This document shows positions 13,323-49,366 of a DNA stretch of 64,000 nt, piece by piece. Below the pieces are notes generated by a model. It was not told the DNA's origin and ran no database searches. It worked only from the letters and a program-made list of their open reading frames with translations. Each line of letters opens with the position of its first letter. The first letter of the stretch is position 1. This DNA is from a virus, in the IMG/VR virus record IMGVR_UViG_3300018916_000001, positions 32,001-96,000 of that record, one strand, 5' to 3'. The position numbers were made by a program, and so were the translations under genes.

Positions 13323-13586
13323 TTAGTTATTTTGAGTTTGATTGCAAAGAAAGTCTCTTATTTTATCTAACTTTATTACTCCTCTATGATATAAATGTTC
13401 AGCTATTTCAGCAAATTCACTAGCAGTACAAAATAATTCTTGATGTCGTTCATTAGTTAAAGTTAAATGAGCTTCATCTTTAATTGTTTCTCCTTCTACT
13501 ACTTTTACAGTTAAGCAGCAATTAGCAATAGTGGTACAAGCAGTTACTAATTCTTGTCCGTTTACTTTTTTCTTAGTTATTGTCAT
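13323..13586 (-). CDS. Hypothetical protein, divergent from TerL
   Basis: 87-aa ORF with ATG start. Confidence 0.65.
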   Translation of the reverse strand: MTITKKKVNGQELVTACTTIANCCLTVKVVEGETIKDEAHLTLTNERHQELFCTASEFAEIAEHLYHRGVIKLDKIRDFLCNQTQNN

Positions 13587-13628
13587 GTTTTTATACTATT
13601 ATATAGGTACTTCATATTATATATCAAA

Positions 13629-15218
13629 ATGTCAAAGAAAAAGAATGAGCAGTTAAGTAAAATAGACCAAGAAATAGAATTTCTACTTAATCAACAAAAA
13701 TATATCAATGCTTCTAATTCTCTATATGATTTTCTTAAAGTTGGATTTGATCATGTAGAAACTAATGATTTTAGAGATAGTCGTTTAGCAGGAGCTTTAT
13801 GCGAGCATTTAGAAGCAATAATGAATGGACAGATTAAAAGATTAATTATCAATATTAGTCCAAGAACTATGAAGACTCTATTAACCGGAGTTTATTTTCC
13901 TGCTTATTGGTGGTTAAAGAAACCTCATCTTAAGTTTATTTATTGTAGTTATACGGTTGGTATTGCTCGTAAATGCTCTGAACAGTTTAGAAAATTAGTT
14001 CAACATGATTATTACTCTTTAGTTCAAAATACTATGGAGAGTTATATGGATACTCCTATTAGTTTTACTGGTTATAAAAATACACAAGATTTAATCGTAA
14101 ATAACTATGGAGGTGAGAGAGTTACTGTAGGTATCGGAGGTAGTATCACTGGTATTGGAGCAGATGTAATTATCTTAGATGATCCTTTAAAAGCTAAAGA
14201 TGCGTATAGCAAAATACAAAAAGCTCATGTTAACAACTTCATTCAAGGTACATTAATCAATCGTTTAAATAAGACCAGTGAAGAAAAAGTAGTTATATTA
14301 ATTCAGCAAAGATTAGCAGAAGATGATGCTTCAGGGTTTTTAAGAGAACAAGGTAGCTATGATATTTTAGAATTACCACTTTTATTTACTGGTCTTTCTA
14401 ATAGTAAGACTCAACTAGATTTTAGAGATTGGAGAAAGAAACCTGGTGAGATCCTGATCCCAGAACTTATGACTTTGGAAGATGTAGCTAGTCTAGAAAA
14501 TCAGATGGGAGCTATTGAGTTTGAACGTCAATGTCAGCAGAATATTAAAGGTGCAGCGGGAAATATTGTCTCTAGTAAGTATTTCAAAGAATATCAAAAT
14601 GCTCCTCCTTACGAACAATATATCTTGGCAGGTGACTTAGCTGAATCAGTGGAAGACCAAGCTTGTTATACCGGATTAGTAATCTTTGGTGTATATGAAA
14701 ATAAGTATTATGTAGTAGATATAGTAGAGAAAAAATTAGGTTTTGATGATTTAATTATTGAAGTGAAAAATCTACTAAATAAATATCCTTGTGCTTATAA
14801 AATCATAGAGAAGAAAAGTGTCGGCCCTGCTCTTATCAATGTTTTATCTAAAGAAATTCCGGGTTTTATTGCATTAGAGCCTAGAGAATATGGAACAGAT
14901 AAAGAAAGTCGATTGAAAGCTAGTATTCCTGCGTTTATGTCAGGTAAAATATATTTCCCTACTAAAGAGGCTTGTGAGAAAATAGTAACTCTAAAAGATC
15001 AGTTGGTAACTTTTCCATTATGTAGAAATGATGATGTTATGGATGCTTTTTGCTATGGAGTTCTATGGTTAGAAAGAAATAGTAGAGTAGTTAGTAGCTC
15101 AGAAATACTTCAAGTTCCATCTGAATATATAAAACAAAGAAGGAACATCTTTATTGATACTCCTTCTCCTAATCAAATATTTGGTTCTACTAATACTTCT
15201 ACTAGATTTAGATTTTAA
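13629..15218 (+). CDS. terL: Terminase large subunit
   Basis: LIINISPRTMKT Walker A, GGSITGIGADVIILDDP Walker B, IQQRLAEDD, RNase H-like AGD..IEKK..NDDVMDA; ATG at 13629. Confidence 0.93.
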   Translation: MSKKKNEQLSKIDQEIEFLLNQQKYINASNSLYDFLKVGFDHVETNDFRDSRLAGALCEHLEAIMNGQIKRLIINISPRTMKTLLTGVYFPAYWWLKKPHLKFIYCSYTVGIARKCSEQFRKLVQHDYYSLVQNTMESYMDTPISFTGYKNTQDLIVNNYGGERVTVGIGGSITGIGADVIILDDPLKAKDAYSKIQKAHVNNFIQGTLINRLNKTSEEKVVILIQQRLAEDDASGFLREQGSYDILELPLLFTGLSNSKTQLDFRDWRKKPGEILIPELMTLEDVASLENQMGAIEFERQCQQNIKGAAGNIVSSKYFKEYQNAPPYEQYILAGDLAESVEDQACYTGLVIFGVYENKYYVVDIVEKKLGFDDLIIEVKNLLNKYPCAYKIIEKKSVGPALINVLSKEIPGFIALEPREYGTDKESRLKASIPAFMSGKIYFPTKEACEKIVTLKDQLVTFPLCRNDDVMDAFCYGVLWLERNSRVVSSSEILQVPSEYIKQRRNIFIDTPSPNQIFGSTNTSTRFRF

Positions 15219-15858: not shown

Positions 15859-18800
15859 ATGGCAACAGTATTGAAAAAGAAAAAATCTAAGAGTTCTTTA
15901 GATATTAATTATGTAGATAAATTCGTTAATAGCGTAGAGAATAAACTATACAACTTCAATCTAATGTTTTTAACTCCTTATAAGAAAGAGTTAGATAATG
16001 GAGATTCTAGTGTCTTAAACAAAATCTCTAAGAACTTTAATTTACCTACTTTAATTATTAAAAATGCTTTAGATGAGTTATGGAATCATCATTGGATATT
16101 AGGCCAGCAAGATGTATTGAGTAGTGAGAAAAATAAGAGAAGTAATTATTCTATATCGTCTAATGAGCTAATCACATTTGCTATCGACCCAAATCAAAAG
16201 ATTGTAGATTCTAGAGTAGAAAAGCGAATATTAAAAGAACAATCTATAAGAGTTGCTGCCTTACAAAAAGAATTAAATAGAAAGAATCTTAATCAATCTG
16301 ATAAAAATACTATAAAAGCTAACTTAGATTTGATTAGTAATGAACTTCAACAATTCTTAGGTAGTTTAGGTAGTAGAAATGTTACTCAAGATAAAAAGAA
16401 TAAACAATTTGCTTCTGTAGATGTTAGAGTTCGTGATTTACAAGAGACTATAAGAACTATGGAGCTTAAGTTATCAGAATCTAATGCTCCTAATCCCAAT
16501 ACTAATGGAATTGATATATTAAACTCTACTGAATTTGGTACTATCTATCAAAATAAGCGAACTCTACTGTTAGCCCAGAACTACTCTGAAGATTATAAGA
16601 AAAACGTAATTAAAAAGATTCGAGATTATTTCTCTAATAATGAAGGAGTAAGACCAAATAATAGAGAACAAAAATTATTCAATGCTTTAACTACTAGACA
16701 AGAAAATGAAAATCAAGAGTACTATCAGAAGTTATTGAAAGACCCAGATTTAAAAGGAGAAGATAGAACTGCTCTAACTGCTATTGAAGATTTTATAGAT
16801 CAGATTAAAGACAATAAAAGTCTAAACGATAAACAAATACAGAAATTTGCTACTGGAGAAAGTGGTTATGGCAACGATGCTAAAGTTAATCTTGCTACTA
16901 CTCGATTAAAGAATCAGACTGCTAAAAGTGATTTATATAAAGATTTAGCTCAACAATTAATAGATTTAATTCAACCTTATAAAGATAATAAGAAGGTTGC
17001 TAGATATAAAGAAAATATACCAAAAATTAGAAATGCAGGAGATATTAGAAATCTATTAAAAACTATAAAAGAAAGAGAAGTTAAGAATATTTTGATAGAC
17101 GGACAATATAAAGAAGGTGCATTTGATAGTAAATCTGGAAAATATAAACCAATTGAGTCTATAGAAAATACTGCTAGTAATATCTTTGGTATAAGAAGAA
17201 TCAAAAGAATAGCTGAAACAGAAATATCTCTAGCATATAACTTAGGTCGTTTAAAAAAACTAGAAGAACTTGGATATAAAAAAGTTAGAGTAACTAATGA
17301 AGCTGAAAATAGAACGAATAGAGATAGAGTATTAGCTCTACAAGAACTTCAGAAAGTAAAAGAATCTTACCGACTAAATAAAGCATATAGATTACCTAAT
17401 AGTAAGAGTTATATGCCAATTCTTTGTAACCATTGTTTAGGTAGAAAGGGTGATGAGTTTGATATTCAAACAGATAAAGTTTATGAAAGTAATGTAAATA
17501 CTCCATATAACCAAGTAGATAAGAGATATTCTTTATTTCCACCTTTTCATGTATCGTGTTGGTGTTATTTTGAAGGAGTAGAAGATAGTAGGAAAGCTGG
17601 TGTTATTAATACTAAAGTACCTCCAATTAAAGATGGACTTGTACTATCTGGTATAGGATTATTATCTGTAGCTTCTGCTTATATAGCTTTTAATGTATTA
17701 AAGAGAAATCCTGTAGCAAAGAATTTAACTCAAACAGTATTTGATAGAGCAACTGATGTTAGAAATACTTTTAATGACGCACTAAAAAGACCTAAAGTTA
17801 ATCTTCCTCTAAACTTAACACCTAAACAAATAGAAGATAGTAGAAAGATACTAGATGTTACTGATGAAGCTTTTGAACAAATAGAATCGAATACTAGAAA
17901 CTTACTAGGAGTATCAAATGTATCGAAGAAAAGTGGAGATGCTGTCTTAGATGCTATAGATAATAGTTTAGTTGGACGTTCTTATAAAACTCTTAATGAA
18001 AATGCTAAAAGTTTTAATGGAGTTCTAGATGATATTCCAGATTACGTAAGAAATCTAAAACCAGTAATTGACTCTAGAGAAAGATACTATACTCTACGAA
18101 ATATTATATATGATAAATCTGTACCTATAGAAACTAGAAAAAGTATCTATAATCAATATTTAATAGCTAGAAGAGAATACGAGAAACAAATATCTAATCA
18201 TTTAAATAGAACTAGAAATCTAAAAAGTACAGTTAATAATATACAATCTCAATTAACTCTAGATGCTAATAGACAAATATTAGGTAATATAGATAATTTT
18301 CCTCCTAATACAAATCTAGAAGATGCGTTAAATAGTGTAAGAAGTAGAAATGCTTTAACTCTTACTGATACTCAATTAAAATCTATAAGAAATAATCTTG
18401 CTACTGAACGTAAAGGTATACAAGAAAAAATTAATGTAGAGAGTAAAGTTATAGATAATACTTTAGATGGTATAGATACTAAACAAAAAGCTATAGATCT
18501 TAAAGATAGTTATAGAAATATAAGAAATCTTAGTGATTCGTATATCTCTCGAAATAAAGCTCTAGATAAAGTCATTACTAATATAGATTCTATTAAGAAA
18601 GAACTTAATAATACCACTAAACTTGGTAATACTAAAAGAAATTTACTTAACTCTAGACTTAATAGTAGTAATCCTATAGATAGACAGTATTTACTAGATA
18701 ACCAAGAAAAATATATTAAAGACGTAATTAAACAACAACAGTTAATAATTAGTGAGTTAAAGAAATTACCTAAGAATGATAGTGAGCTAGATGATTTTAT

Positions 18801-19107
18801 TAATCTCTATAGATCTGAAATACAGAATAAATATAGTAATAAATACAAATATAGTCAAAATTTATGGAGTGAAAAAGAAATAGCTAGTCTACAAAAGCAA
18901 TATGTGAAAGCTAGTGATATTGTTACAGCTAGAAATACTTATCAATCTTATCTAGAAGAAACAGAAGATATATTAGCTAAGTTAAGCAGCTTCGAGAAGA
19001 GTATAAGTGATTCGACTATTAAATTCTCTTCCTATGAAAATGATAATATAAAAGAAAAACTCTCTAAATTACCAAGTATAAGAAAAATAAAATTCTATGA
19101 GAAGTAG
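15859..19107 (+). CDS. Giant Mu gpF/SPP1 gp7-like head morphogenesis protein
   Basis: RIAETEISLAYNLGR, CNHC, PPFHVSCWC motifs; hydrophobic helix and long coiled-coil extension. Confidence 0.8.
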   Translation: MATVLKKKKSKSSLDINYVDKFVNSVENKLYNFNLMFLTPYKKELDNGDSSVLNKISKNFNLPTLIIKNALDELWNHHWILGQQDVLSSEKNKRSNYSISSNELITFAIDPNQKIVDSRVEKRILKEQSIRVAALQKELNRKNLNQSDKNTIKANLDLISNELQQFLGSLGSRNVTQDKKNKQFASVDVRVRDLQETIRTMELKLSESNAPNPNTNGIDILNSTEFGTIYQNKRTLLLAQNYSEDYKKNVIKKIRDYFSNNEGVRPNNREQKLFNALTTRQENENQEYYQKLLKDPDLKGEDRTALTAIEDFIDQIKDNKSLNDKQIQKFATGESGYGNDAKVNLATTRLKNQTAKSDLYKDLAQQLIDLIQPYKDNKKVARYKENIPKIRNAGDIRNLLKTIKEREVKNILIDGQYKEGAFDSKSGKYKPIESIENTASNIFGIRRIKRIAETEISLAYNLGRLKKLEELGYKKVRVTNEAENRTNRDRVLALQELQKVKESYRLNKAYRLPNSKSYMPILCNHCLGRKGDEFDIQTDKVYESNVNTPYNQVDKRYSLFPPFHVSCWCYFEGVEDSRKAGVINTKVPPIKDGLVLSGIGLLSVASAYIAFNVLKRNPVAKNLTQTVFDRATDVRNTFNDALKRPKVNLPLNLTPKQIEDSRKILDVTDEAFEQIESNTRNLLGVSNVSKKSGDAVLDAIDNSLVGRSYKTLNENAKSFNGVLDDIPDYVRNLKPVIDSRERYYTLRNIIYDKSVPIETRKSIYNQYLIARREYEKQISNHLNRTRNLKSTVNNIQSQLTLDANRQILGNIDNFPPNTNLEDALNSVRSRNALTLTDTQLKSIRNNLATERKGIQEKINVESKVIDNTLDGIDTKQKAIDLKDSYRNIRNLSDSYISRNKALDKVITNIDSIKKELNNTTKLGNTKRNLLNSRLNSSNPIDRQYLLDNQEKYIKDVIKQQQLIISELKKLPKNDSELDDFINLYRSEIQNKYSNKYKYSQNLWSEKEIASLQKQYVKASDIVTARNTYQSYLEETEDILAKLSSFEKSISDSTIKFSSYENDNIKEKLSKLPSIRKIKFYEK

Positions 19108-20179
19108 TCGATATATCACATTTTCAGGAAATCAAAAAGTAAAAAAAGATATTAAAGTTAAAGGTTATGTAAGAAAAGGTAAGTTTGTTAGGTCATTTAA
19201 TAGAGAACAAAATGTAAATCAAATTGCTCTTAAAGTAGCTGGTGTAAGTTTAGCTGTGTTAGGTGGTGCGTTAGGTATTGGTATTACTGGAGCTGCTGTT
19301 ACTAAATTTAGATATAACAAGAATCTAGTTGATTTCGGTAAAAAGATTGCTAATGGTACTGCTGATATTCCATCTATGAAAATTCCTGAAGGTGTTAAAA
19401 AGATAAAACCACCTTATAGAATTGATGCAGACAAAGATGACCTTACTTTTTTTATAGGAGGTATGGGTAGAGCAGAAGATGCTTTAGGAGAAAAGTTAAT
19501 GAAAACTGTTAGAGCTTCATTTAAAGCAAGAGGTAAAGATATAACTAAACGACATGAGTTAGTCCCTCTCTTTCACAATTATCAGGTTAAGAGAGATGTA
19601 AATCTAAAAGTTTTAGGAAAAGATTTAAGTGACACTCCTGTAGCAAAGATGGGTCAAGAGATATATGACGTATTTAATAAAGCTGCTATTAAAGGATATA
19701 ACGAAGACTCACTTATTATGGCGAATGAAATTTATAAATGGCACAAGCTCAATCCTACTAAACCTATCAACTTAATTACTGCTAGTGGAGGAGGTTTTCA
19801 AGGTAAAGATGTTCCTCACTTATTGAATGCTGCTGGAGTAGACCCAAAATTAATGAAAGTATTTTCTACTGCTACACCTGATTACGGTATTGTAGATGAG
19901 ATTGTTCCTACTTTAAAAGTCATGCACACTGATGATATGTATGCAAGAACTATTCCTAAGATTAAACAACTAAATTTACCATCTTTACATAGAGGAACTA
20001 CTTGGGTCGGCCCTGGAGATACACCAGAATATAGAGCAATGCTAAAGAAAGGAAATAAAATGGTTTCAGATTACGAGATGCCTGCTGCTGTTCACTTTGC
20101 TCCTGCATATTTCAATGGAGAAACTCTATCTTCTAAGAAAACTTTAAAGTTGCTTGAGAATTTTATGTTTAATGATTAA
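19097..20179 (+). CDS. Leader + basic motif + Gly-rich TM + alpha/beta-hydrolase-like domain (putative capsid cargo)
   Basis: ITF|S leader, VKGYVRKGKFVRSF, TM, FFIGGMG, INLITASGGG nucleophile elbow, HTDD, AVHF. Confidence 0.6.
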   Translation: MRSSRYITFSGNQKVKKDIKVKGYVRKGKFVRSFNREQNVNQIALKVAGVSLAVLGGALGIGITGAAVTKFRYNKNLVDFGKKIANGTADIPSMKIPEGVKKIKPPYRIDADKDDLTFFIGGMGRAEDALGEKLMKTVRASFKARGKDITKRHELVPLFHNYQVKRDVNLKVLGKDLSDTPVAKMGQEIYDVFNKAAIKGYNEDSLIMANEIYKWHKLNPTKPINLITASGGGFQGKDVPHLLNAAGVDPKLMKVFSTATPDYGIVDEIVPTLKVMHTDDMYARTIPKIKQLNLPSLHRGTTWVGPGDTPEYRAMLKKGNKMVSDYEMPAAVHFAPAYFNGETLSSKKTLKLLENFMFND

Positions 20180-28361: not shown

Positions 28362-29906
28362 ATGGTTATATTTAGTCTATTACTTGAAAAAGTTGAAGAT
28401 GATTATTACTATCGATATATTAGCGACAACATTACTTATTACATACCTTCATACAAAACTGATAGACTGAATAAACCTATTAGCGAATTTGAGTCTTTTG
28501 AAGATTATACAAGCATCTCTGAATTTTTAAATAGAGTATATAACGAAAATGAGTATAGCGAAGATTATGTAGTAAAAGAAGCTAAAGATACAAAAGAAAT
28601 ATCTATAACAATAATGGGGTATAAATATAAAAACTTCATTGTTCTTATAGGAAGTCAAAAATCAGATATTTTACTAGAAGAAACTTTATTTAAAGAAGAC
28701 TATATATTTCTAGTTAGATGGGTAGGTAATAAAGAAGATTTAATAGATGATATATCAGATAATGTAGTTAATCTTTTAGGATATAGCAAACAAGAAATAC
28801 TATCTAAACCTTATATAGATTTTTTACATCCTGATGATATTGACTTATTTAATCAAGAGTTAACTGAACATATAAAAGAAAATACTGCTTCTTTCTATCA
28901 AAGATATAGATTATTAGCTAAATCTGGAAAAGCTATCACTATTCTCGATCATTCATGTCAGATCTTTAAAGGAAATACTAAGACTATCATTGGTTATCTA
29001 AGAGATATCACTGTAGAAACTCAAATCTCTACTCAATTGAAAGAACTTATTAACTTAGATGAAGAAGATTTTAATAGTAGTCTTCTAATTAAGATTGAAT
29101 GGGATTCTGAATATCGAATAGTTCGTTGGAATACTGAAGCTCAAGATTTAATTGGTTGGGGTCACGAAATTCTTGGTAAAAGTATTAGAGAACTCAACTT
29201 ATTTTCTGATGCAGATTCTATTAAGATGCAAGGTCAATTTAAAAGATTATTTGCAAGAGAAGTAGATAACGTAATTAGTAGTTTTAGAATTCAAAAGAAA
29301 GAAGGAGGATTTATAGATACTAAATGGTCTAATCGTTTAATTACTAGAGAAGGTAAATTGAGAGTTGTATCTTCCGTCATAGATAAAAGTCAAGAAACTC
29401 TATTAACTACTCGCTTAGATGAGATGGAAGGTCGTTCTGACTTACTTCTAAAAACTCTAGAAAATACTCATTTATCTAATGATGTCTTTACTAAATTAAT
29501 GCACAATCCTCTCACTGGAAATCCTGAAGGACTTATTAAAGCTGAGATTATCATTAGAAAATTAGAAGAAGAGATTACTAGATTGAATAATACGATTTTC
29601 TACAATAACGATAATAATTTGATGAGTGACATTGCTTTCTTAAAGAATGAGGAACGTGTACTAAAAGATAAAATTAATAAAGTAGAAGAAAGTAATAAAA
29701 AGTTATCTGAACAGTTAGATGATTTATTAAACGTAAATATATTAACTCTATTTAAGAATTTAGATTTTAAAAAAGTTGTAGCAATAATTATATCGGGTTA
29801 TTTAATATTCGGTCAGTTTGTACCTGCTCTATATCCAAGATTAGTTAAACCTTTATTCCAAGAATATAATCGAGAAATGAAAGAGATTGAAGGTGATAAA
29901 AAATAA
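28362..29906 (+). CDS. PAS-PAS-coiled-coil-TM protein without an output domain
   Basis: ISDNVVNLLGYS..FLHPDD..YRLLAKSG..RDIT; IEWDSEYRIVRWN..IGW..LGK..KWSN; C-terminal VVAIIISGYLIFGQFVPALY. Confidence 0.85.
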   Translation: MVIFSLLLEKVEDDYYYRYISDNITYYIPSYKTDRLNKPISEFESFEDYTSISEFLNRVYNENEYSEDYVVKEAKDTKEISITIMGYKYKNFIVLIGSQKSDILLEETLFKEDYIFLVRWVGNKEDLIDDISDNVVNLLGYSKQEILSKPYIDFLHPDDIDLFNQELTEHIKENTASFYQRYRLLAKSGKAITILDHSCQIFKGNTKTIIGYLRDITVETQISTQLKELINLDEEDFNSSLLIKIEWDSEYRIVRWNTEAQDLIGWGHEILGKSIRELNLFSDADSIKMQGQFKRLFAREVDNVISSFRIQKKEGGFIDTKWSNRLITREGKLRVVSSVIDKSQETLLTTRLDEMEGRSDLLLKTLENTHLSNDVFTKLMHNPLTGNPEGLIKAEIIIRKLEEEITRLNNTIFYNNDNNLMSDIAFLKNEERVLKDKINKVEESNKKLSEQLDDLLNVNILTLFKNLDFKKVVAIIISGYLIFGQFVPALYPRLVKPLFQEYNREMKEIEGDKK

Positions 29907-34150: not shown

Positions 34151-34978
34151 ATGGCAGATAATAAAAGTCCCGCTCAAGCTACAAATTTACTGAACTTCTT
34201 AAAAGGTTTAGTCGTTACATCTCCGATTAATAATAACGTTTTCATTGGTTTATCTACTACTCTTCCAACTGCGGAAGGTGGTAATTTTACTGAACCTGCT
34301 GGATCTACGGGTTATGCAAAAGTTCAATATGCAACTGGTGTATCAAACTTCTCAGAACCTAATAAGCGCTCATGTTTCAATCAACAAGAAGTGAAGTTTA
34401 ATGTTGCTCTTACCCAATATCCTACTGTAGTTGCTGTAGGTATATTTGATGAGACTAGCGATACCGTTCCTCTTTATTTCGGTTCTATTGATTTAGGTCG
34501 AAGTATTGAAACTGGTGATAGAGTATATTTCCCACCTCAAGGAATCATCATTCATGAAGTTCAACCGACGTTTACTAAATCTGATTATTTAGCAAATGCA
34601 CAATTGAAACTCTTACGTAATGAGACATTTGAAACTCCGTCTGAGATTTATTTGGCTCTTGGTACAATGACTCCTACGATGACTGGAGATATTGGTGAAT
34701 TGACTAATACTAACTCCCCTGGCTATGTCCGAATTCCTATTCCTTGTAATGCAGCGAATTGGCAAGTTACTGGACGAACTGCGACTAATCTTATGGAATT
34801 AGTATTTCCAATGGCAACTGCACCTTGGGAGAATATTAAATCCTTCGCTCTACATAGAAGTGCTACTGGTAATACAGATATGCTCTATTGTGGAAGTTTT
34901 GGAGAGAACAACACTAAAGTTATTTACCTCAAAGATAAATTACGGATTCCAGTAGGCGCAATTACAGTTTCAGAATAA
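34151..34978 (+). CDS. Virion structural protein with two tandem repeated domains (minor tail/fibre-type)
   Basis: FIGLST..EPAGSTGYA..F..A..VGIFD repeated as YLALGT..ELT..PGYVR..F..A..FALH. Confidence 0.7.
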   Translation: MADNKSPAQATNLLNFLKGLVVTSPINNNVFIGLSTTLPTAEGGNFTEPAGSTGYAKVQYATGVSNFSEPNKRSCFNQQEVKFNVALTQYPTVVAVGIFDETSDTVPLYFGSIDLGRSIETGDRVYFPPQGIIIHEVQPTFTKSDYLANAQLKLLRNETFETPSEIYLALGTMTPTMTGDIGELTNTNSPGYVRIPIPCNAANWQVTGRTATNLMELVFPMATAPWENIKSFALHRSATGNTDMLYCGSFGENNTKVIYLKDKLRIPVGAITVSE

Positions 34979-39703: not shown

Positions 39704-42700
39704 ATGGATACTGCTAGCAATATTAAATTTAATGTTGAGGGAGATGATAAGTTCTCTCAATTTCTAGAGAAAACTCAAAAATCATTTAAAGAACTTAATG
39801 AGAAATCACTTAGGCTATTTAATACTGGTCTTAGAGAAGGTTCTAGAGGTTTAAAAGATATAACAAAAGAAATTAGAACTAAGTCTAGTGTAGTAGAGAA
39901 GTTAATAGCGGATTATGGTAAAGCTACTAACTCTACTAATACTTGGACAGCTTCTCTTGGTAAATTAGCTAAAACTGCTACATTGCTAGGTGGAGCTATG
40001 ACAGCTTTAAATATTGCTAGCATTGGTGGTGGTATCGCAAGTATTGTAGGTACTGGTATTAATGGTGTAATAGACTCACTTACTAAAGTTAATACTGGTA
40101 TAGATGTTATGGCTGCTAGTGGATTTGACGGGACTCCACTAATGAATTCATTTCAAGAGATAACTGCTGTATTAACCGGAAATCAAGCTGCTATTGATGC
40201 TTTCACTTCTAGATCAACTGCTGCATTTAACTCGTTTGAGCAGAAATTAAATGAAGTTAACATTGTATTTGGCTTATCAAAAGAAAGATTAGCTGAATAT
40301 GGCGATGCTCTACAAAATGGTTTAGAAAAGAATTTAAAGAATAGTGTCTCTTCTCTTACTGCTTTAAATGCTGCGTATCAAGCTGCTTCTGCTGGATTTA
40401 CAGAATTTCAACAAAACCAAGATGTAGTTAATCTAGCAATCAAAGCGAATAAAGCTGCTCCGGGAAGTGACTTATTCCAGATTGGTGGAGCTATTGGTAA
40501 AGGTGCAGGTATCCTAGAAACTAAGGACATTGCAGAATTAGAAGAAGTTACTGCTAAATGGTTAGCTACGGAACAACAAGGTCTAACTACTGTAGGAGAA
40601 ATGACTGAGTATATTAGCGATATGTACTCATCTCTTAAAAACGCAGGTATTGGTACTAAAAATCTAGTTAATGAAACTCAAGGTTTAGTAGTAGCTTTTA
40701 CTAAGTTAGGTGGTAAAGTTACTGATATCTCTACTGAAATGCAAGCGTTCTCTAGAAATACTATTGGTAAAACTCCTGAAGCAACGAAAGCTTTAGAAGG
40801 ATTGGTAGACGCACAAGGAAAAGCTATTACTCTTAATCAAGAATATTTTGGTAAGAAAGGTGTAGTTCAAGGTATTGTAGATTTTGCTGAAGCCGTAGGA
40901 TATAACACTGAGAAGATTAAGGAAGTATATAACGAGACTAATGCTTTCAACTTTGTAATGAAGGTATTAGCTCAAAATGGTAATCTTGCTAAAAAATCTA
41001 TTGAAGATATTAGTAAAGTTACGTCTGAAAATTTAACTGAAGCTTTTGATTCTGCTACTTCTTCATCTCAAGCAAAAATGGAGCAAATTACTAATGCTTA
41101 TGATGAAATAATGATCTCTTTCGGTAAAGTATTCCAAGAAAGAAGTAGAGAAGGTGTTAAATCTATTGAGTGGTATAAAGAAGCTTTAGTAACTTTTAAA
41201 GAGCCATTAGTAGAAATAGCAGGAAGAATGGTAACTTTTTTTGATAATGTAGGAAAATTTACTGGAGTTCTTAGTTCAGTTGCTAAAATGCTCACTGGTA
41301 TAGCAGGAACTATTATTAGCTATAGAGCTTTTGACTTAATTTTTAAAGGACTAACTGATGGATTTAAAGATGTAAAAAAAGAAGGTTCTGTAATTAAAGA
41401 GCTTTATACATCTAATCAAGGTTTATTTGCTATAGGAAAGCAGTTATTAGGATTGGATCAACAGAAACTATTAAGTCAAAATAGAATCAATGAAGCAATT
41501 AAAAAGTCTAGTGAATTAGAACAAGGACTAACTAACTCTATAGGAAAAACTAATAGTGAAAGATTAACTTCTATTGCTACAGTTAAAAATGAGATAGACG
41601 CAATAGTTTCTAGAGATGAGTCTATAATTAAAGGTCAGCAAAAAGTAACTAAAGCTGAAGAACTACTAAATAAGAAAGTAGATAGTAGAAATACAGTACA
41701 ATCCGAAGTAAACTCTACTCAAAAAGGTTTAGCTAATCTAAAAACTCTTAAAGCTGATATTGACAATACTTTTAAAAATAATGTAGAGAATATTGAGCGT
41801 TCCAAAAAACTTAGTGAAATCGCTGCTCAAGAAGCTTTAATTAAACAAGGAAATATTGGAAAACAAGAAAGACAACAATTAAAAGAGCTTAACGCAGAAA
41901 AACTAAGACTTCAAAATACTTATAACACAACTACATTAGACCAATTAGCTTCATTAGAAAAACAAAAAGATATTCTAAGAAATAAAGCTAAGAAATCTGA
42001 TAGAGATTATGCTGCCTTAGACAATATATATAAGAGAGAAGATCAGTTATTAGATAGAGAAAGAACAAAAGATCGTACTCCTCTAACTAAAGAACAAAGA
42101 ACTGAGCTTAACAATACTCGTAAAGATATTGCTACTAAGATACAGCAAGAAGAATTAATTCTCTTAACTCAAAGACAAAAGTTACAAGAAGCTAATAATG
42201 TAGTAGATAAAGAAACTCAAAAACTAAATCAAGTTAGAGCTGACCAACAAGAAAAACTTAATCGAGTTACTAAAGCTACTACTGAATTAGCAGTTCTACA
42301 ACAAGATTTAAATACTAAAAAAACTAATCTAGATAAAATTGATTTAGCTGTTACAGGACAACGTGATAAGCTATACTCAATTCAAAATAATCTAAGAAAA
42401 GAACAAGCTACTTTAGATAAAATTCGTAATAAGGATAGCGCAGAATATCAACAGCAATTAAAAAAAGTTGTATCTTTACAAGAACAAGAAGCTACTCAAC
42501 AAACCGTATTTCAAAAAGCTAGAACTACCCAACTTACTGCACAACAAGCTGTTAACAAAGCAGAAATAGAAAGTAAAACTAAACTTAGACAATTAACTAG
42601 AGAACAAGGTTTAGCGGAAGGCTCGCTTATTGAATTAAGAACTCGTTCAGGTTCAGTAGCTCTTAAAAATACAGCTTTTAATAGAGATTTAGTGAGTTCT

Positions 42701-45700
42701 TATAATGCTTTTGGTACTGCAATAGAAAACGCTAAGAAACCAGTACAAACCTTTAATAATGCTCAAACAAGTCTAAGAAATGGTTTAGTAGATTTGAGAA
42801 GTAATTTAGGTCAAGTTGGAGTTACTGCTGGTAGAAACTTTACTACTATGGCTGCGTCTGCTAAAGCTAGTCTTGCTGCTATTGGAACTTCCGCTGTTAT
42901 AGCTGGAGAAACTATTAAAGCTGCGTTTATATCTACAGGAATAGGTTTACTTATATCGGCTGTTGTAGGGTTAGGAGTCAAATTATTTCAAGTAGGACAA
43001 GAATCAGCTAAGTTAGATCGTACTTATAAAGATTTTAATAAGACTTTAGAAGAATCTGCTACTAAATTTGATAGAGCTAATATATCTTTTGACCAAGGAA
43101 CTCAAGGACTTAACAAATTTAATGATAGAGTAGAAGCTTCTAAAAAATTGTTTGGTGATATTGAAACTACTGCTTTTGATGAGATTGGTGAAGGTATTAA
43201 AAATGCAACGGTTAATATAGTTGACTTTATAACTACTGTTACTGGATTAAAACTGCTAGACCCAATATTTAAAAAAGTAGGAGAAGGCTTTTCAGCGGTT
43301 TGGAATAGTTTTTCAGATGCAGAGTTTATTAAACGTTCTGCTAAAATGACTCAAATATCTGAGTTTATCCAGACTTATGAGTTAGCTTTACGTGGACAAA
43401 ATAAAGAATTAGAGAAAGGCAATCTATTAACTGAGACTTCTAATCAGAAGATAAAAAATAGAATGATTCTTACTGGTGAAGATTTAGAGCGGGAGAAAGC
43501 TGCTAATAGCACTAGAATTGAGTCATTCCAGTCTATGACTGATATTCAGAAGAAAGAATTAGAAGAACTTAAAAGTAAAGGAGATAAGTTAACTGATAGA
43601 GATAAAGCTCAAATTAGCATTCTAGAAGCTGAAATCTCAAGAAGAGAGAAAGTAATAGAAGTTAGTAAGAAACAATTTGATGAGCAACTTAAATATTATG
43701 AAGCTCGTAATCTTCTACTAGATAGAGAGAACAAATTTAGTAATGAGCAAGTTTCTTTAGAAGAACTTAAAGGATTACAAGACCAAGTAAACAATTCTCA
43801 GACTACTCTAAACAAGAATATAAGTGAAGGATTAGATATATATTCTTCTTCTATTAAAGATTCTTCTGTTAAATCTAGACAATTTTTAACTGATTTGAAA
43901 GATGGAAGTTTAAGTGTAAAAGCTTCTATTAAAAGTCTTGGTGGAGAAATCTATAAAGTAGGAGAAGATGGAAAAGCTGTTAGTAAATTGCCAGATACAG
44001 TTCTAAAATCTATTCAAGATGCTATTAAAGGTAATGAAGTAGATGGTAAGAAATATTCTTTAGAGCAAGTTCTAAATCTTAAAGAAACTAGAGATGCTTT
44101 AACTACTGCTGGAGTAGAAATACCTAAAGATCTCAAAGTCTTAGCAGATAAGATGAAGAAAGGCTATGAAGCTTCAGAAGGCGAACTCCAGTTAATCAAT
44201 CTAAAAGAGCTAGAAAAAGATTTAGCTAGTTTCTCTACTTTATCTGATAAATACCAAGAGAAAAGAAGACAGTTTTTATCTACTACTAAAGATGATATTG
44301 GAGCTACCACATTTTCTACTTCACTTAAGAAATCTTTAAGATTAGCTGAAACAGATTTACAAAACTTTAATAACGCTTTAGATGCGTCTTCTAAAGGTGC
44401 AAATAAGTTTGTGACTGGAGCTACTCAAAAGTTCACTACACAAGCCTTAGAAGGAACGTTAGACCTTACTGAAGGGTTAAAAGAGTTAGGTAAAGTAGAA
44501 AGTGAAATTGAACCTAAACAATTAGAAAAACTTAAAAACTCAATTACTGGTAAAAATAAAGATGAGATTTTAACAGCTCTTAAAGAAATTGGAATAGTTA
44601 CAGAACAAACTCTAACTGCCGATGCAATTGATTTTAATAAATTTGAGGCGGGAATAGGAGCTTTTGTAGAATCACTAAACGCGGTAGCAGAATCAGGAGA
44701 ACAAACCAGTGAAGAAATAGCTAAGAAATTTGAGTCTTTCTATGACCAAATGAAAGGCAAGGTAACTCCTGCTGCTTATAAAGACCTAACTGAAACACTT
44801 ATTGGTTATGAGAAAGCTGCTAGTGAACAAAGAATAAATAATATAACTCTTGAAACTAATGCTTTAGAACAGCAGAAGAAATATGGTTTAGTGTTAGAAG
44901 CTAATTATATCAAAGAGATTAACGCTCTTAACATTCAAACTACTGAAGAAAATATAAATAACAAGCAAATAGAACTTAAAAGATTACTTTCACTATATAA
45001 AGAATCTGCTCCTCAAGTAATAAAAGCTAAAGCTGAATTGGAATCACTAGAATTAGACCTTAAAGCTAAGAAATCTAATAGTCCAATAGAAATTGCCCAA
45101 GCGGAAAGTAAAGCTAGATTTGACATTCTTAAAAAAGATTTAGAGTTAGGTAAAGTAACTAGAAGACAATATATAGAAGAAGAACTTAAAGACTCTCAAC
45201 TTCTATATCAAACTCAATTAAGTGAAAAACAAAAAACTTTATTGGAGTTAATGAAAGATGAGGTTAAAAACGCTAAAGCTATAAAAGCTCTTAGAAAATC
45301 AATGGAGTCTGATGAAAAAGATTTCAATCTAAATGTCTTAGAGATTAATAGAAGAAGAATAGAAGAACAATTTAAAATTCAAACTAATGCTTTAAGTAGA
45401 CGAGAACTAGAAGCTAGAGAAAACGCTATTAATGGTACTACTAAAGATGAATTAGAGTCAGTTAGAAAATTAGAAACTGATAAGATTAATCTCAATATCA
45501 AAACTTTAGAGTCTAGATTAGCAGTAGAAAAGCAAGGAAGTGAAAAGTTCCTAGAAATAGAGAAGCAATTATTAGAAGCTCAGTTATCTCTTAGAGAAAC
45601 TCAAGTTAAACAATCTAAAAATAGAACTAATGAGGAAATCGAGAGAAAGAGAAATGAGTTATCTACTATTGCAGCTCTAGAAGAAAGAAATAATATTCGT

Positions 45701-48700
45701 GGGTCTAATACAAAGGACTTAGAGAGAACTAGACAACTAAAAGAGAAAGAAATCCAATTATCTATTGATTCTATCAACTCTCAAATTGCTTTGACTGAAA
45801 AAGGTAGTAAGGAACGATTAGCTTTAGAACAACAGTTAATTCTAGAAGTTAATAAGTTACAAAAAACTCAGCTAGATAATCAAAAAGAAAGATTAGAACA
45901 ATCTCTAGAAGAAAGAAGAAAGAAGTTAGAAGCTAGACAAATTGATTTAGAAAAGACTTCTATTAGAGGAACTACTGAACAAGATATTGAAGCTACTAGA
46001 AAACTAAAAGAAGAAGAGATTACTTCTACTATTGAATCTCTCAAACAAAGGTCTTCCTTATATAAAGAAGGTAGTAAAGAAAGAATTGCTCTTGAACAAG
46101 AGATAGCTAAAGAAACTCTTAAGTTAGATAAACAAGTCTATGAAAATCAAAAGTCTCGATTACAAACTCAAATAGACAATAAGAAGAAAGCTTTTAGAGA
46201 TACACAACTACAATTAGAGAAGTTAATGGTGCTTGGAACTTCTACTGAAGATTCTAAAAAAGTTCGTGCATCTAAGGAAGAAGAAATTCAAATTACTATT
46301 GAAAGTATCAAGAAAGAAATTAAATTAACTAAAGAAGGAAGCACTCAAAGAAAAGATTTAGAACGTTCATTGAGAGAAGAACTCTTGAAGTTAGATAAAC
46401 AAAGAGTAGCTAATAAAAGAGAATTGATAGATGAAGAAATATCTCTAGAAAAAACTAAGATTACTAAAATTCAGTCTTTATTGGAACGTTCAACTATTGG
46501 AGGAACTTTTGAAAAAGATTTAGAGAAGATTCGTGAGTTAAAAGTAAAAGAAACTCAAATAGTAATTCAATCTATACAAAAACAGTTAGCTACTTATAAG
46601 TTAGGTAGTAAAGAAAGATTATCTCTAGAAGCTCAGTTAACTCAAGAGATTACTAAATTACAAAAGATTCAGTTTGGTAATAAAGAAGAGAAACTAAAAT
46701 CTCAGTTGGAAGACGCCAAGAATAAGTTAGATAAGCAAATTGCATTGAAAGAGTCTAGCTTAATTGATGGTGCAACAGAACGAGAACTGAAAATAGTAGA
46801 AGAAGCAAAGATAAAAGAAACTCAACTTACTATTGATTCTATCAAGAAACAAATAAATCTCTATAAGGTAGGAAGCAAAGAACGTCTTGCTCTAGAAGCT
46901 AATCTACAGAGAGAAATCAATAATCTAAGAAAACAAACTTTAGATAAAGAGAAAAACTTAATTCAGAATGCTCTAGAGTTTAAGAAAACTAAGATTGATA
47001 TTACGAATATTGACTTAGAAAAGAAACTTCTTAGAGGAGATATTGATAGAGAAAGTTTTGAAGATAAGTTAACTGCTTCATCTCAAAAAGTTAATCTCTT
47101 ACAACAAGACGCATTTACCAAGCAACTTAAACTATATCAAAAAGGTAGTAAAGAATATTTAGAGATACTTAAAAATCTATCTCAATTACAAGTTGACTAT
47201 CAAAAATCTGTAGTAGATAAAGCTATTAGAGATATTGATAGAATTACTAAATCTCAGAATAATTCGATAGAAGCACAAAAAATCTCTATTACTAATCAAT
47301 TAAGTTCTAGTGATTCACTTACTAAAGAACTTCAAGAGCAAATTAAACTTGAAGATTCTAGAAGTTCTGTGATTAAAGCTACCTCAGATTATCAAGTAGG
47401 ACTATTAGAATTAACTAAAAGATCTACAGGAGATATAGAGAAGAGAGCAAAGATTGACGTACAAATTGCTGAACTAAAACAGAAAGCTCTATTAGAAAGT
47501 CAAGAGATTGAGATTAATAGTATAAAGAACAATACGTTAATAAATGAAGCTGCGTTAGAAAGAGAGAAAATTCAAATATCTCTTAATAGATTGGAGTTAG
47601 ACAGGAATAAAATTCAAACTGAAGCAGAACTAAGAAAAGCTAGATTAAATAAGTTAGATCAAGCCTCTATTAATGCACTTCAGTTACAGTTAGATTCTAT
47701 TAATAATCAATATGACGCTCTTGGTAGAAGTGAAAACTCAATCTTTACTCAAATTGCTAATCAAGCTGAGATTAGTAGAAATCAGTTAGAAGTGATTAGA
47801 CAACAACAAGATTTAGCTCAAAAGAATTCTGTGTTAGACGTTGAACAAGCTAAGCAAAACGTTATTATTGCAGGTTACGAAAAGCAGCTATCTCAACTAA
47901 AAGCTAAAGGTGATTTAATACAAGCTAATGCAAATAAAGAAAAAGTTATAGGAGATTTATTAACTAAAGCTTATGACACTCAAATTGCTTTACTAAATAG
48001 TAGAAAAGAATTGATGGACTCAACTTTAAGTTCTATTGATTCTCTATATAATATTGAACAATCAATGGCAAAGTCTGACTTAACTAAAGATAAATTAGCT
48101 AAAGAACAAGCTAAAGATAAATTGAGTTATCTAGAATTCCAACAAAGAGTTGAGAATGAAAGTTTTAATTTAGAAAAAGCTAAGAATCGGATAGTTAGAG
48201 AAAGACAGAAAGTTGAGTTAACAATCGCTGAGTTAAATGCTAAACAAGCTCTTGCAATGTCTAAAGCTGAAGAAGCTAGAACTAAGGCCCGTAAAGATGC
48301 TACTAATGAAGAGAAGTTAGCAGCTAAATTAGCGGTAGAAGCAGCAGAACAGGGTATTATTGCAGCTAAAGCTAATAGAGATATTAATCTAGAACTTATA
48401 AAAATAGAAGAACAATCAGAAAAGAATAAAGAAATAATCAATGCTCGTAATCAAAGGAACCAAAGACTACAAGCTGAACAATCTCTTGCATCTTTAACTT
48501 CTAATACTACTGATGATAGAGAAGTGAGAGGAAAAGCACAAAAATATAGAGAACTAGATGAAAGGACTATTAGTAGTACATTAAAGTCTACTTCTAATTT
48601 AAACATAGAGAATATACTTAAAGAGTTCACTAATGATATGAAGAACAGAAAACCTATAGAAAATAGTATTAATAAAGTTAATAACACTGATACACCTAAA

Positions 48701-49366
48701 ACTTCTCCTATATCTTCTGTTCTTAGTATTCCTGGTATTAGTAGAGGAAACGTTAACTCTAGAGAAAATAAGAATGACGATAAAGGTAAGAGAGATAATA
48801 AGGATAATGTCTTTACTTCTATCACTAACTTAAGTAAATCTATAGATAAAGCAGAAAAGTCTATTACTAAGAAGTTAGGATTAGATACTCAATCACTTAT
48901 CAAAACATCTAATATAAATAGTAAAACTCTTAATAAACTTATAGAAGTTAGTGTAAAGAGTATAAGTAAGAGTATAACTTCTGCTACTAATAGTATTACT
49001 GGTACAACTCTTAAAGATAGTAAAGTAGTAAAACCTCCTAAGCCAAAGAAAGGAGAAATTGTACCTGACTCACTTAGAACTATTAGAGAAGCTGTTACTA
49101 ACTTCAAATTATCTGTAGATAAATCTAACGTAGAGAAGAAAAAAGAAGCTGATATTAGATATAAAGAAGAACAGAAAGATAATGATAGATTACAAAAATC
49201 TATTGAACTTCTAATAGAGAAGATTGAGGAACATATAGAGAAAGGTGGAAATACTACTATTCACTCTCCTATTAATGTAACTGGTGGAGGAGATAAAAAT
49301 GTAGGTTTAGAATTTAATAAGCAGCTATATAATATATTGGATAAAACTCATAGGAGACAGAAATAA
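39704..49366 (+). CDS. Tape measure protein (3220 aa)
   Basis: Very long helical protein after the chaperones; hydrophobic stretches; FEQKLNEVN core; 89-aa repeats. Confidence 0.9.
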   Translation: MDTASNIKFNVEGDDKFSQFLEKTQKSFKELNEKSLRLFNTGLREGSRGLKDITKEIRTKSSVVEKLIADYGKATNSTNTWTASLGKLAKTATLLGGAMTALNIASIGGGIASIVGTGINGVIDSLTKVNTGIDVMAASGFDGTPLMNSFQEITAVLTGNQAAIDAFTSRSTAAFNSFEQKLNEVNIVFGLSKERLAEYGDALQNGLEKNLKNSVSSLTALNAAYQAASAGFTEFQQNQDVVNLAIKANKAAPGSDLFQIGGAIGKGAGILETKDIAELEEVTAKWLATEQQGLTTVGEMTEYISDMYSSLKNAGIGTKNLVNETQGLVVAFTKLGGKVTDISTEMQAFSRNTIGKTPEATKALEGLVDAQGKAITLNQEYFGKKGVVQGIVDFAEAVGYNTEKIKEVYNETNAFNFVMKVLAQNGNLAKKSIEDISKVTSENLTEAFDSATSSSQAKMEQITNAYDEIMISFGKVFQERSREGVKSIEWYKEALVTFKEPLVEIAGRMVTFFDNVGKFTGVLSSVAKMLTGIAGTIISYRAFDLIFKGLTDGFKDVKKEGSVIKELYTSNQGLFAIGKQLLGLDQQKLLSQNRINEAIKKSSELEQGLTNSIGKTNSERLTSIATVKNEIDAIVSRDESIIKGQQKVTKAEELLNKKVDSRNTVQSEVNSTQKGLANLKTLKADIDNTFKNNVENIERSKKLSEIAAQEALIKQGNIGKQERQQLKELNAEKLRLQNTYNTTTLDQLASLEKQKDILRNKAKKSDRDYAALDNIYKREDQLLDRERTKDRTPLTKEQRTELNNTRKDIATKIQQEELILLTQRQKLQEANNVVDKETQKLNQVRADQQEKLNRVTKATTELAVLQQDLNTKKTNLDKIDLAVTGQRDKLYSIQNNLRKEQATLDKIRNKDSAEYQQQLKKVVSLQEQEATQQTVFQKARTTQLTAQQAVNKAEIESKTKLRQLTREQGLAEGSLIELRTRSGSVALKNTAFNRDLVSSYNAFGTAIENAKKPVQTFNNAQTSLRNGLVDLRSNLGQVGVTAGRNFTTMAASAKASLAAIGTSAVIAGETIKAAFISTGIGLLISAVVGLGVKLFQVGQESAKLDRTYKDFNKTLEESATKFDRANISFDQGTQGLNKFNDRVEASKKLFGDIETTAFDEIGEGIKNATVNIVDFITTVTGLKLLDPIFKKVGEGFSAVWNSFSDAEFIKRSAKMTQISEFIQTYELALRGQNKELEKGNLLTETSNQKIKNRMILTGEDLEREKAANSTRIESFQSMTDIQKKELEELKSKGDKLTDRDKAQISILEAEISRREKVIEVSKKQFDEQLKYYEARNLLLDRENKFSNEQVSLEELKGLQDQVNNSQTTLNKNISEGLDIYSSSIKDSSVKSRQFLTDLKDGSLSVKASIKSLGGEIYKVGEDGKAVSKLPDTVLKSIQDAIKGNEVDGKKYSLEQVLNLKETRDALTTAGVEIPKDLKVLADKMKKGYEASEGELQLINLKELEKDLASFSTLSDKYQEKRRQFLSTTKDDIGATTFSTSLKKSLRLAETDLQNFNNALDASSKGANKFVTGATQKFTTQALEGTLDLTEGLKELGKVESEIEPKQLEKLKNSITGKNKDEILTALKEIGIVTEQTLTADAIDFNKFEAGIGAFVESLNAVAESGEQTSEEIAKKFESFYDQMKGKVTPAAYKDLTETLIGYEKAASEQRINNITLETNALEQQKKYGLVLEANYIKEINALNIQTTEENINNKQIELKRLLSLYKESAPQVIKAKAELESLELDLKAKKSNSPIEIAQAESKARFDILKKDLELGKVTRRQYIEEELKDSQLLYQTQLSEKQKTLLELMKDEVKNAKAIKALRKSMESDEKDFNLNVLEINRRRIEEQFKIQTNALSRRELEARENAINGTTKDELESVRKLETDKINLNIKTLESRLAVEKQGSEKFLEIEKQLLEAQLSLRETQVKQSKNRTNEEIERKRNELSTIAALEERNNIRGSNTKDLERTRQLKEKEIQLSIDSINSQIALTEKGSKERLALEQQLILEVNKLQKTQLDNQKERLEQSLEERRKKLEARQIDLEKTSIRGTTEQDIEATRKLKEEEITSTIESLKQRSSLYKEGSKERIALEQEIAKETLKLDKQVYENQKSRLQTQIDNKKKAFRDTQLQLEKLMVLGTSTEDSKKVRASKEEEIQITIESIKKEIKLTKEGSTQRKDLERSLREELLKLDKQRVANKRELIDEEISLEKTKITKIQSLLERSTIGGTFEKDLEKIRELKVKETQIVIQSIQKQLATYKLGSKERLSLEAQLTQEITKLQKIQFGNKEEKLKSQLEDAKNKLDKQIALKESSLIDGATERELKIVEEAKIKETQLTIDSIKKQINLYKVGSKERLALEANLQREINNLRKQTLDKEKNLIQNALEFKKTKIDITNIDLEKKLLRGDIDRESFEDKLTASSQKVNLLQQDAFTKQLKLYQKGSKEYLEILKNLSQLQVDYQKSVVDKAIRDIDRITKSQNNSIEAQKISITNQLSSSDSLTKELQEQIKLEDSRSSVIKATSDYQVGLLELTKRSTGDIEKRAKIDVQIAELKQKALLESQEIEINSIKNNTLINEAALEREKIQISLNRLELDRNKIQTEAELRKARLNKLDQASINALQLQLDSINNQYDALGRSENSIFTQIANQAEISRNQLEVIRQQQDLAQKNSVLDVEQAKQNVIIAGYEKQLSQLKAKGDLIQANANKEKVIGDLLTKAYDTQIALLNSRKELMDSTLSSIDSLYNIEQSMAKSDLTKDKLAKEQAKDKLSYLEFQQRVENESFNLEKAKNRIVRERQKVELTIAELNAKQALAMSKAEEARTKARKDATNEEKLAAKLAVEAAEQGIIAAKANRDINLELIKIEEQSEKNKEIINARNQRNQRLQAEQSLASLTSNTTDDREVRGKAQKYRELDERTISSTLKSTSNLNIENILKEFTNDMKNRKPIENSINKVNNTDTPKTSPISSVLSIPGISRGNVNSRENKNDDKGKRDNKDNVFTSITNLSKSIDKAEKSITKKLGLDTQSLIKTSNINSKTLNKLIEVSVKSISKSITSATNSITGTTLKDSKVVKPPKPKKGEIVPDSLRTIREAVTNFKLSVDKSNVEKKKEADIRYKEEQKDNDRLQKSIELLIEKIEEHIEKGGNTTIHSPINVTGGGDKNVGLEFNKQLYNILDKTHRRQK
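45420..47170 (+). repeat. About 6.5 tandem 89-aa (267-nt) repeats in the tape measure
   Basis: Recurring IxGT..D.E..R.LKE.EI...I.SI...(Y)KxGSKERLALE. Confidence 0.8.

Follow-up and report, generated by a model that had tools for sequence, protein, structure and literature searches.

A putative membrane-anchored serine hydrolase of a new family, encoded among the head genes of a large uncultured phage and probably delivered by the virion

Introduction

Bacteriophages carry wall-cutting enzymes into the cell envelope, and several of these enzymes ride on tape-measure or ejection proteins, as in the lytic transglycosylase gp16 of T7, Pb2 of T5 and Tmp of mycobacteriophage TM4, all of which cut peptidoglycan. 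To our knowledge, serine esterases or lipases are barely documented as entry cargo; a literature search on phage head-module or ejection lipases turned up only staphylococcal tail-associated lipase/esterase domains and LysB, the mycobacteriophage enzyme that completes lysis. Here we describe a gene for a predicted membrane-anchored alpha/beta hydrolase (hereafter, the hydrolase) found in 64,000 nucleotides (nt) of viral DNA, positions 32,001 to 96,000 of IMG/VR record IMGVR_UViG_3300018916_000001. This whole stretch is “the window” below, and all coordinates refer to it; the full virus record measures 151,199 bp and has direct terminal repeats and a G+C content of ~30%.

The proposed role of the hydrolase shares its logic with T7 gp16, T5 Pb2 and TM4 Tmp, in that an envelope-degrading enzyme would ride the particle and act at entry; it differs from them in its serine ester chemistry and in being stand-alone, helix-anchored and encoded among head genes. 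The alpha/beta-hydrolase fold and the existence of entry enzymes that ride in virions are already known; the novelty lies in the family, which is unnamed, in an architecture that joins leader, basic motif, Gly-rich helix and minimal hydrolase, and in the placement among head genes. We conclude that this is a real conserved gene and that its product is, judging from the conserved residues, probably active and, by analogy with relatives in other phages, probably a virion-delivered esterase or lipase of a new family. The reading that we prefer, and to which we would give a probability of roughly 55%, is that an active serine esterase/lipase is carried in the particle, expelled at infection and anchored by its helix in the host membrane, where it would cut lipid or acyl-ester bonds.

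Pfam, PHROGs and NCBIfam do not detect the family, yet it is present in dozens of large uncultured phages and in giant tape-measure proteins, and its module occurs four times in the virion proteins of CL131, a phage of a bloom-forming cyanobacterium. If membrane lipids are indeed attacked, the passage of the genome across the thick, multilayered envelope of cyanobacteria would include a step of lipid cleavage, and a function could be assigned to CL131 open reading frames (ORFs) ORF047 and ORF048. Through the common N-terminal tag described below, it also becomes possible to test how phages direct proteins first to the particle and subsequently to the host membrane.

Results and Discussion

Conservation, fold and predicted active site

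The hydrolase has 44 full-length homologues in a large protein collection (E 1e-41 to 1e-157, 32-67% identity), all of them unnamed and located on contigs of up to ~150 kb. Conservation was read from two alignments, a clade alignment of 27 homologues (A1) and a wide alignment of 22 sequences that takes in distant relatives from an exhaustive HMMER search and reaches down to 20% identity. In the former, T228, S230, G232, D267, D280, H333, I7 and F9 are invariant, as is most of the basic motif; the sole invariant residues in the latter are V21, R26, G122, S230, G232, D280 and H333. The motifs that a preliminary description of this DNA had named were all found in ORF 19097-20179 in the order claimed, that is, leader, basic motif, hydrophobic helix, FFIGGM, PINLITASGGG (with Ser230), VFSTATP, HTDD (with Asp280) and AAVHF..YF (with His333), and because of the 44 homologues and the residues invariant in the alignments they represent more than chance.

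Since the hydrolase has no match in Pfam (E<=0.1), PHROGs or NCBIfam, or by sequence in the PDB, the family is unnamed. A tblastn search of 50,697 phage records also gave no match. The bacterial genome contigs scanned with alignment A1 contained no relative of the hydrolase, so there is no prophage-based clue to the host.

An AlphaFold model built on an alignment gave a mean predicted local distance difference test score (pLDDT) of 77.6 and a predicted template modeling score (pTM) of 0.78; the catalytic domain (residues 110-360) lies mostly at pLDDT 80-97, and residues 1-47 are poorly defined. Compared by VIA-align with 48,161 chains, the model matched 335 chains at Z>=8, and the top 50 were all alpha/beta hydrolases (Z 10.3-12.4), with esterase PE8 (5dwd_B; Z 12.4, root-mean-square deviation (rmsd) 3.2, 182 aa) as the best match, followed by a DDHD phospholipase domain, Lip_vut1, thioesterases, a monoacylglycerol lipase, acyl-protein thioesterases and cutinases. 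The preliminary description had proposed Foldseek as a check on its claim of an alpha/beta-hydrolase fold; against the PDB, Foldseek returned alpha/beta hydrolases exclusively (best E 2e-3), so that model and both structure searches bear the fold out. The minimal lipases and esterases among the top structural neighbors (PE8, 5dwd; Lip_vut1, 6nkc; Bacillus subtilis LipA; and APT1/2; Z 11-12.4) superpose at an rmsd of ~3 Å over 160-185 residues with 10-14% identity; unlike the hydrolase, they are without anchor, basic motif or phage context. As modeled, the hydrolase belongs with the small esterases, lipases, thioesterases and cutinases, a placement in which neither sequence nor fold fixes the specificity.

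The putative active site follows the canonical order of a serine hydrolase. The order Ser-Asp-His claimed earlier is supported by Ser230, Asp280 and His333, and the invariance of these residues down to 20% identity points to a triad Ser230-Asp280-His333 with a Gly121-Gly122 oxyanion loop. The Gly-Gly loop comes after a modeled strand (residues 115-120); within FFIGGM, F118 is invariant in the clade, and in the wide alignment G122 is invariant and G121 nearly so. The family profile found its best PDB sequence match in the Trichoderma reesei cutinase 4psc (E 0.02), and in that alignment Ser230 and Asp280 pair with Ser164 and Asp216, the catalytic residues of the fungal enzyme (PMC12148953). Asp267 was also considered as the catalytic acid and rejected, as it is invariant in the clade only and not in the wide alignment.

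The elbow had been called atypical, which holds for its first position, where Thr replaces Gly, and not for the remainder, which is ordinary. Within the clade the elbow reads T-[AH]-S-[AG]-G-G (mostly T-H-S-A-G-G) and in the wider family G-[HYF]-S-[AG]-G-G. That the classical elbow has lost its first Gly is what speaks for a catalytically dead structural or scaffolding protein that merely keeps the hydrolase fold; we consider such a protein very improbable, since neither the Ser, Asp and His of the putative triad nor the oxyanion Gly varies down to 20% identity and a T-x-S-x-G elbow is functional in Candida antarctica lipase B (CalB), a working lipase with the elbow TWSQG (PMC4405274). CalB is also a structural match to the model (Z 10.8), although it is a secreted fungal enzyme of an unrelated family. 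Several relatives (P0051, P0057, P0065 and P0085) chain three or four hydrolase modules whose elbows alternate among G-H-S-A-G-G, G-Q-S-G-G-T and A-H-S-A-G-G. Relative P0058 also carries a DnaJ domain.

Comparison with the named enzyme families gave weak scores only. Relatives of the hydrolase score weakly on Lipase_3 (PF01764), Cutinase, DUF676, PGAP1, Palm_thioest and Tle3, and apart from Cutinase these matches span just 30-90 residues around the elbow; the hydrolase itself falls below the Pfam gathering cut-offs for PF01764, DUF676, PGAP1, Palm_thioest and Tle3 as well as for Cutinase (PF01083/CE5). A single distant relative, P0052, passes the Cutinase cut-off (34.8 vs 25.9 bits). Fungal cutinases are disulfide-stabilized, and the hydrolase contains no cysteine, so that the classical cutinase disulfides are impossible for it. 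It has a small alpha/beta-hydrolase core in common with both cutinase/CE5 and LysB, and small members of the family also have a short, cutinase-like Asp-to-His spacing (~19 aa); unlike cutinase, however, the hydrolase carries 47 inserted residues between Asp and His as well as an N-terminal anchor, and unlike LysB it has a different genomic role. The insertion varies in length, carries a conserved P-S-L-H-R, is absent from relatives of 270-300 aa and has low pLDDT at residues 287-295; our guess would be a lid or a membrane contact.

Relatives of the module in virion proteins

Delivery by the virion, which the preliminary description had also claimed, is indirectly supported by the presence of homologous modules in tape-measure proteins and in CL131 virion proteins; for the window protein the argument is one of homology. 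Proteins of 600-4900 aa also contain the helix-plus-hydrolase unit, often in two to four copies. In each of the four giant relatives that were tested, Pfam TMP_3 is found downstream of the module, and in two of them Phage_lysozyme2 or Glyco_hydro_19 is present as well. One relative (P0084) matches a single cultured phage, Aphanizomenon phage vB_AphaS-CL131 (MG209611), in which ORF048 (1811 aa) contains three modules (E 9e-45, 3.5e-45 and 9e-24) and ORF047 (330 aa) contains one (E 8e-28); both are immediately upstream of the gene annotated as tape measure. When the family profile was aligned to ORF048 with hhalign (99.7% probability, E 7.8e-27), both helices, hydrophobic and juxtamembrane, fell within the match, as did the positions of Ser, Asp and His. 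Among viral structures, the model is matched best by BFVD entries of 905+906 aa and 330 aa (E 7e-11 to 3e-9), which, judging from protein lengths, would be ORF048 and ORF047, and the fifth is a “tape measure domain protein.”

Tandem mass spectrometry coupled to liquid chromatography (LC-MS/MS) of CsCl-purified CL131 virions detected ORF048 with 105 unique peptides (54.6% coverage) and ORF047 with 14 (38% coverage) (PMC6293099, Supplementary Information (SI) Table 5). This experiment supports the view that proteins built from the module are virion components and, by homology, suggests the same for the window hydrolase. ORF047 and ORF048 share with it the helix, the juxtamembrane helix and a hydrolase domain with conserved Ser, Asp and His; they differ in having the canonical G-H-S-A-G-G elbow and no leader or basic motif, and they are annotated as hypothetical.

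The window also encodes a 3220-aa protein without a Pfam match that is probably the tape measure of this phage, based on a weak similarity to the annotated tape measure of PA-SR01 (23% identity over 373 aa, pairwise E 5e-8). No second copy of the module was found in this protein or in the rest of the genome, a hidden Markov model (HMM) search of all six frames of the 151-kb sequence having returned the single copy of the helix-plus-hydrolase module. Thus, a stand-alone, self-anchored module may replace the tape-measure-borne one in this phage.

Membrane anchor, proposed mechanism and substrate

The hydrophobic helix (residues 43-69) is the sole such segment in the protein; it has a Kyte-Doolittle mean of 1.98 over 19 aa, consists of 46% Gly+Ala and is helical in the AlphaFold model, and it is co-aligned with the hydrolase in multi-module relatives. 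The juxtamembrane helix that follows is modeled at pLDDT 72-91 and is aligned also in CL131 ORF048; the clade keeps K70, Y73, N74 and G81 without exception, and R72 and Y73 are nearly invariant in the wide alignment.

In the mechanism that we propose, the enzyme would be a serine carboxyl-ester hydrolase (esterase, lipase or phospholipase) of minimal alpha/beta-hydrolase fold, made late together with the head genes. The leader and basic motif would load it into the particle, from which it would be expelled through the tail at infection, as ejection proteins or the tape measure are. The hydrophobic helix would then insert into the host membrane and the juxtamembrane helix would hold the active site at the membrane surface, so that the enzyme could cut ester bonds in membrane lipids or in an acylated component of the envelope, with easier genome entry or an altered envelope as the result. 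We infer packaging, leader cleavage, ejection, membrane orientation and substrate; that the substrate is a lipid (a galactolipid or phospholipid) is our guess.

The enzyme could also be delivered by the virion and act on something other than a lipid. Its target might be O-acetyl groups (on peptidoglycan or on a polysaccharide of the surface), a thioester or acyl-protein, or else a peptide bond, and this last option includes a protease that trims the Phe-ending leaders described below. Nothing in the sequence fixes the specificity; acetyl-xylan and other carbohydrate esterases, thioesterases and acyl-protein thioesterases match the model at about the same Z as lipases, and in giant relatives the module accompanies wall-degrading domains. 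Even inside large proteins, however, the hydrophobic and juxtamembrane helices belong to the module, which favors action at the membrane surface. For the peptide-bond variant in particular, there is no peptidase among the top 50 VIA-align matches, and a maturation protease is unlikely to bear a leader and an anchor of its own. Taken together, we regard a non-lipid substrate as rather unlikely.

Leader and tag sequences

I7 and F9 of the hydrolase leader are invariant in 27 homologues, while the adjoining positions vary, and we infer that the leader would be cleaved after F9. Other proteins in the window have leaders of the same kind (MKFLGQIEF|SKK and MQLKFLGNIEF|SK, next to MRSSRYITF|SG), in which Phe is followed by Ser or Ala and Lys-rich sequence; leaders resembling that of ribosomal protein L27 stand at the N-termini at 29906, 30734, 31042, 25995, 31374 and 32555. 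Some of them are followed by R-G-K-D-K-x-K-R-K-S-R, which we take to be vaguely reminiscent of the mature L27 N-terminus. Short N-terminal leaders on head proteins are also found in T4, whose internal proteins and Alt have capsid-targeting sequences. The window leaders, predicted here from sequence, resemble those cut by the protease Prp on long L27 and on the capsid and scaffold proteins of phage 80alpha, with the consensus MLxx(D/N)LQ(F/L)F|A(S/H)KK (PMC9405229, PMC5744158). The phage genome yielded no gene for a Prp protease. Cyanobacteria are absent from the phyla for which long L27 has been reported, and the L27-like leaders may bear on the assignment of the host.

The basic motif, with the consensus K-x-I-K-V-K-G-Y-V-R-K-G-K-F-V-R-S-F-x-R-x-Q, occurs once in the genome of the window phage. 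K17, K22, R26, G28, R36 and Q38 are invariant in the clade, V21 and R26 down to 20% identity, and the model places two short strands in it (25-26 and 29-30) at low confidence. Some distant relatives have Phe-ending leaders ahead of the motif and others have no leader; in P0046, also distant, the entire unit (basic motif, helix and hydrolase) is duplicated in tandem.

A second clade of phages (MCP, the major capsid protein, 34-38% identical; G+C ~33%) shows the motif in a broader setting. There, in loci L011-L021 (e.g., L012:7914-14042, L014:9001-13312 and L020:306-4925), it heads four to five proteins per locus whose C-terminal parts, of 226-524 aa, are unrelated to one another. The motif (K-V-K-S-Y-x-R-K-G-K-x-V-x-x-Y-x-R) always adjoins a Gly-rich helix; some of the tagged proteins have a Phe-ending leader (MFFLSDVKSVEF, MFLMSDTVNF), some start at the motif, and in two small ORFs the motif is C-terminal to the helix. 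Because it is found on several proteins with unrelated C-terminal parts, the basic motif plus Gly-rich helix is, on sequence grounds, a portable tag, whose role would be to address proteins to the particle, to bind DNA, or both. We put forward, as a tentative possibility only, that tag and Phe-ending leader form a general address tag in large cyanophage-related siphoviruses, which would load enzymes unrelated to one another, and further payloads, into the particle and plant them in the host membrane upon ejection; the hydrolase may then be one payload of a modular, membrane-directed delivery system, and the same module may alternatively be built into the tape measure.

Genomic context and points against virion delivery

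The hydrolase lies between the large terminase gene (TerL) and the MCP gene (Table 1), a position in the structural block that is conserved in both phage clades. The order in the first clade, kept in six IMG/VR loci, is terminase, a small reverse gene, a 1082-aa protein, hydrolase, a reverse gene for an XRE-type helix-turn-helix (HTH) protein, a small Gly-rich protein (in most loci), proteins of 311 aa, 336 aa (acidic) and 278 aa, and MCP. Across these loci the hydrolase is 36-59% identical and the terminase ~70%; the hydrolase therefore evolves faster than the terminase. The second clade has a hydrolase homologue of 278-282 aa, flanked on one side by a homologue of the 1082-aa protein and on the other by those of the 311-aa, scaffold-like and capsid proteins; its neighbor genes have no Pfam match. 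The nearest cultured relatives of the MCP are the Pseudanabaena phages Pam2 and PA-SR01 (31% identity), and cyanobacteria are the probable host group.

Table 1. Predicted features of the hydrolase and selected genes in the window (residue numbers refer to the hydrolase).
Feature	Position	Strand	Basis or remark
Whole hydrolase gene, 360 aa	19097..20179 (incl. stop codon)	+	ORF list, 44 homologues
N-terminal leader MRSSRYITF (residues 1-9)	19097..19123	+	Ends in conserved I-T-F
Basic motif KDIKVKGYVRKGKFVRSFNREQ (residues 17-38)	19145..19210	+	
Single Gly/Ala-rich hydrophobic helix (residues 43-69), predicted membrane anchor	19223..19303	+	Hydropathy, model
Conserved juxtamembrane helix K-F-R-Y-N-K-N-L...G-K (residues 70-86)	19304..19354	+	
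Catalytic alpha/beta-hydrolase domain (residues 110-360)	19424..20176	+	AlphaFold, structural matches
FFIGGM (residues 118-123), candidate oxyanion-hole loop	19448..19465	+	Conservation, model
Nucleophile elbow T-A-S-G-G with Ser230	19778..19792	+	Strand 224-229, then helix 230-245
Asp280, candidate catalytic acid	19934..19936	+	After strand 272-276; invariant in both alignments
Clade-specific insertion between acid and His (residues 284-330, 47 aa)	19946..20086	+	Indels in alignment A1
His333, candidate base	20093..20095	+	Last triad residue ahead of C-terminal helices; invariant in both alignments
Large terminase (TerL)	13554-15218		
Upstream 1082-aa gene	15859..19107	+	11-nt overlap with hydrolase; place kept in both clades
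XRE-type HTH gene, 84 aa	20144..20398	-	Convergent, 36-nt overlap with hydrolase 3' end; HTH_31 2.4e-8, HTH_3 4.5e-8
Major capsid protein (MCP)	23887-25053		Matches Phage_cap_E
3220-aa protein	39704-49366		No Pfam match

Several observations weigh against a hydrolase that is packaged with the head and ejected. In CL131 and in the giant proteins the module stands in a tail (tape-measure) context rather than among head genes, and it is without the basic motif. In the second clade, head genes and hydrolase are on opposite strands, and the HTH regulator gene precedes the hydrolase, directly or with one further tagged gene in between, so that the hydrolase may be transcribed separately. A MuF identity for the 1082-aa protein upstream was not confirmed: no PF04233 match came up in the genome of the phage, even with the threshold at E 10. 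Lastly, the 43 N-terminal residues ahead of the hydrophobic helix have a net charge of +10, which is also compatible with a signal anchor that enters the membrane from the cytoplasmic side and leaves the enzyme in the periplasm.

Such an orientation would suit an envelope esterase of the lysis phase, that is, an unpackaged protein whose signal anchor leaves the enzyme in the periplasm, where it would attack outer-membrane lipids or links between lipid and wall, much as LysB completes lysis. Besides the charge of the N-terminus, the helix that follows it is similar in composition (46% Gly+Ala) to signal-anchor-release domains; the best PDB sequence match of the core is a cutinase, the fold class of LysB, with LysB itself coming up only as a weak structural match (rank 36, E 0.06); and the strand of the second-clade gene is in keeping with it. 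Against it stand the homologous modules in tape-measure proteins and in two CL131 proteins detected in virions, and the N-terminal tag that the hydrolase has in common with several other head-block proteins. We therefore think a role in lysis improbable and retain delivery by the virion as the preferred reading.

Annotation of the neighboring genes was otherwise of limited yield. The 1082-aa ORF, whose stop the ATG-started hydrolase ORF overlaps, encodes by eye a C-x-x-C...P-P-F-H-V-S-C-W-C motif, followed by a hydrophobic helix and, after it, a long helical tail; for MuF there is a weak atlas lead (score 0.87), and an AlphaFold model on a 9-sequence alignment (pLDDT 53) was too poor for a structure search. 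Its first 600 aa had no tblastn match among phages, and it has no similarity to CL131 gp035. No portal gene was recognized between the terminase and capsid genes, and HMM, BLAST and fold comparisons gave no support for the 1082-aa protein as MuF or as the portal. The downstream 311-aa protein, which had been labeled a “protease,” has no match among PDB sequences, in Pfam or in NCBIfam.

Both clades have the HTH gene beside the hydrolase; in the second, it lies upstream of the hydrolase and in the same orientation. CL131 has a reverse regulator gene just ahead of its DUF2213 head gene. Farther downstream in the window, positions 34151-34978 match Pfam PF23140 (fiber I protein gp80 of podophage GP4) at 4.6e-35, a podophage-type match in a phage that is otherwise related to siphoviral cyanophages.

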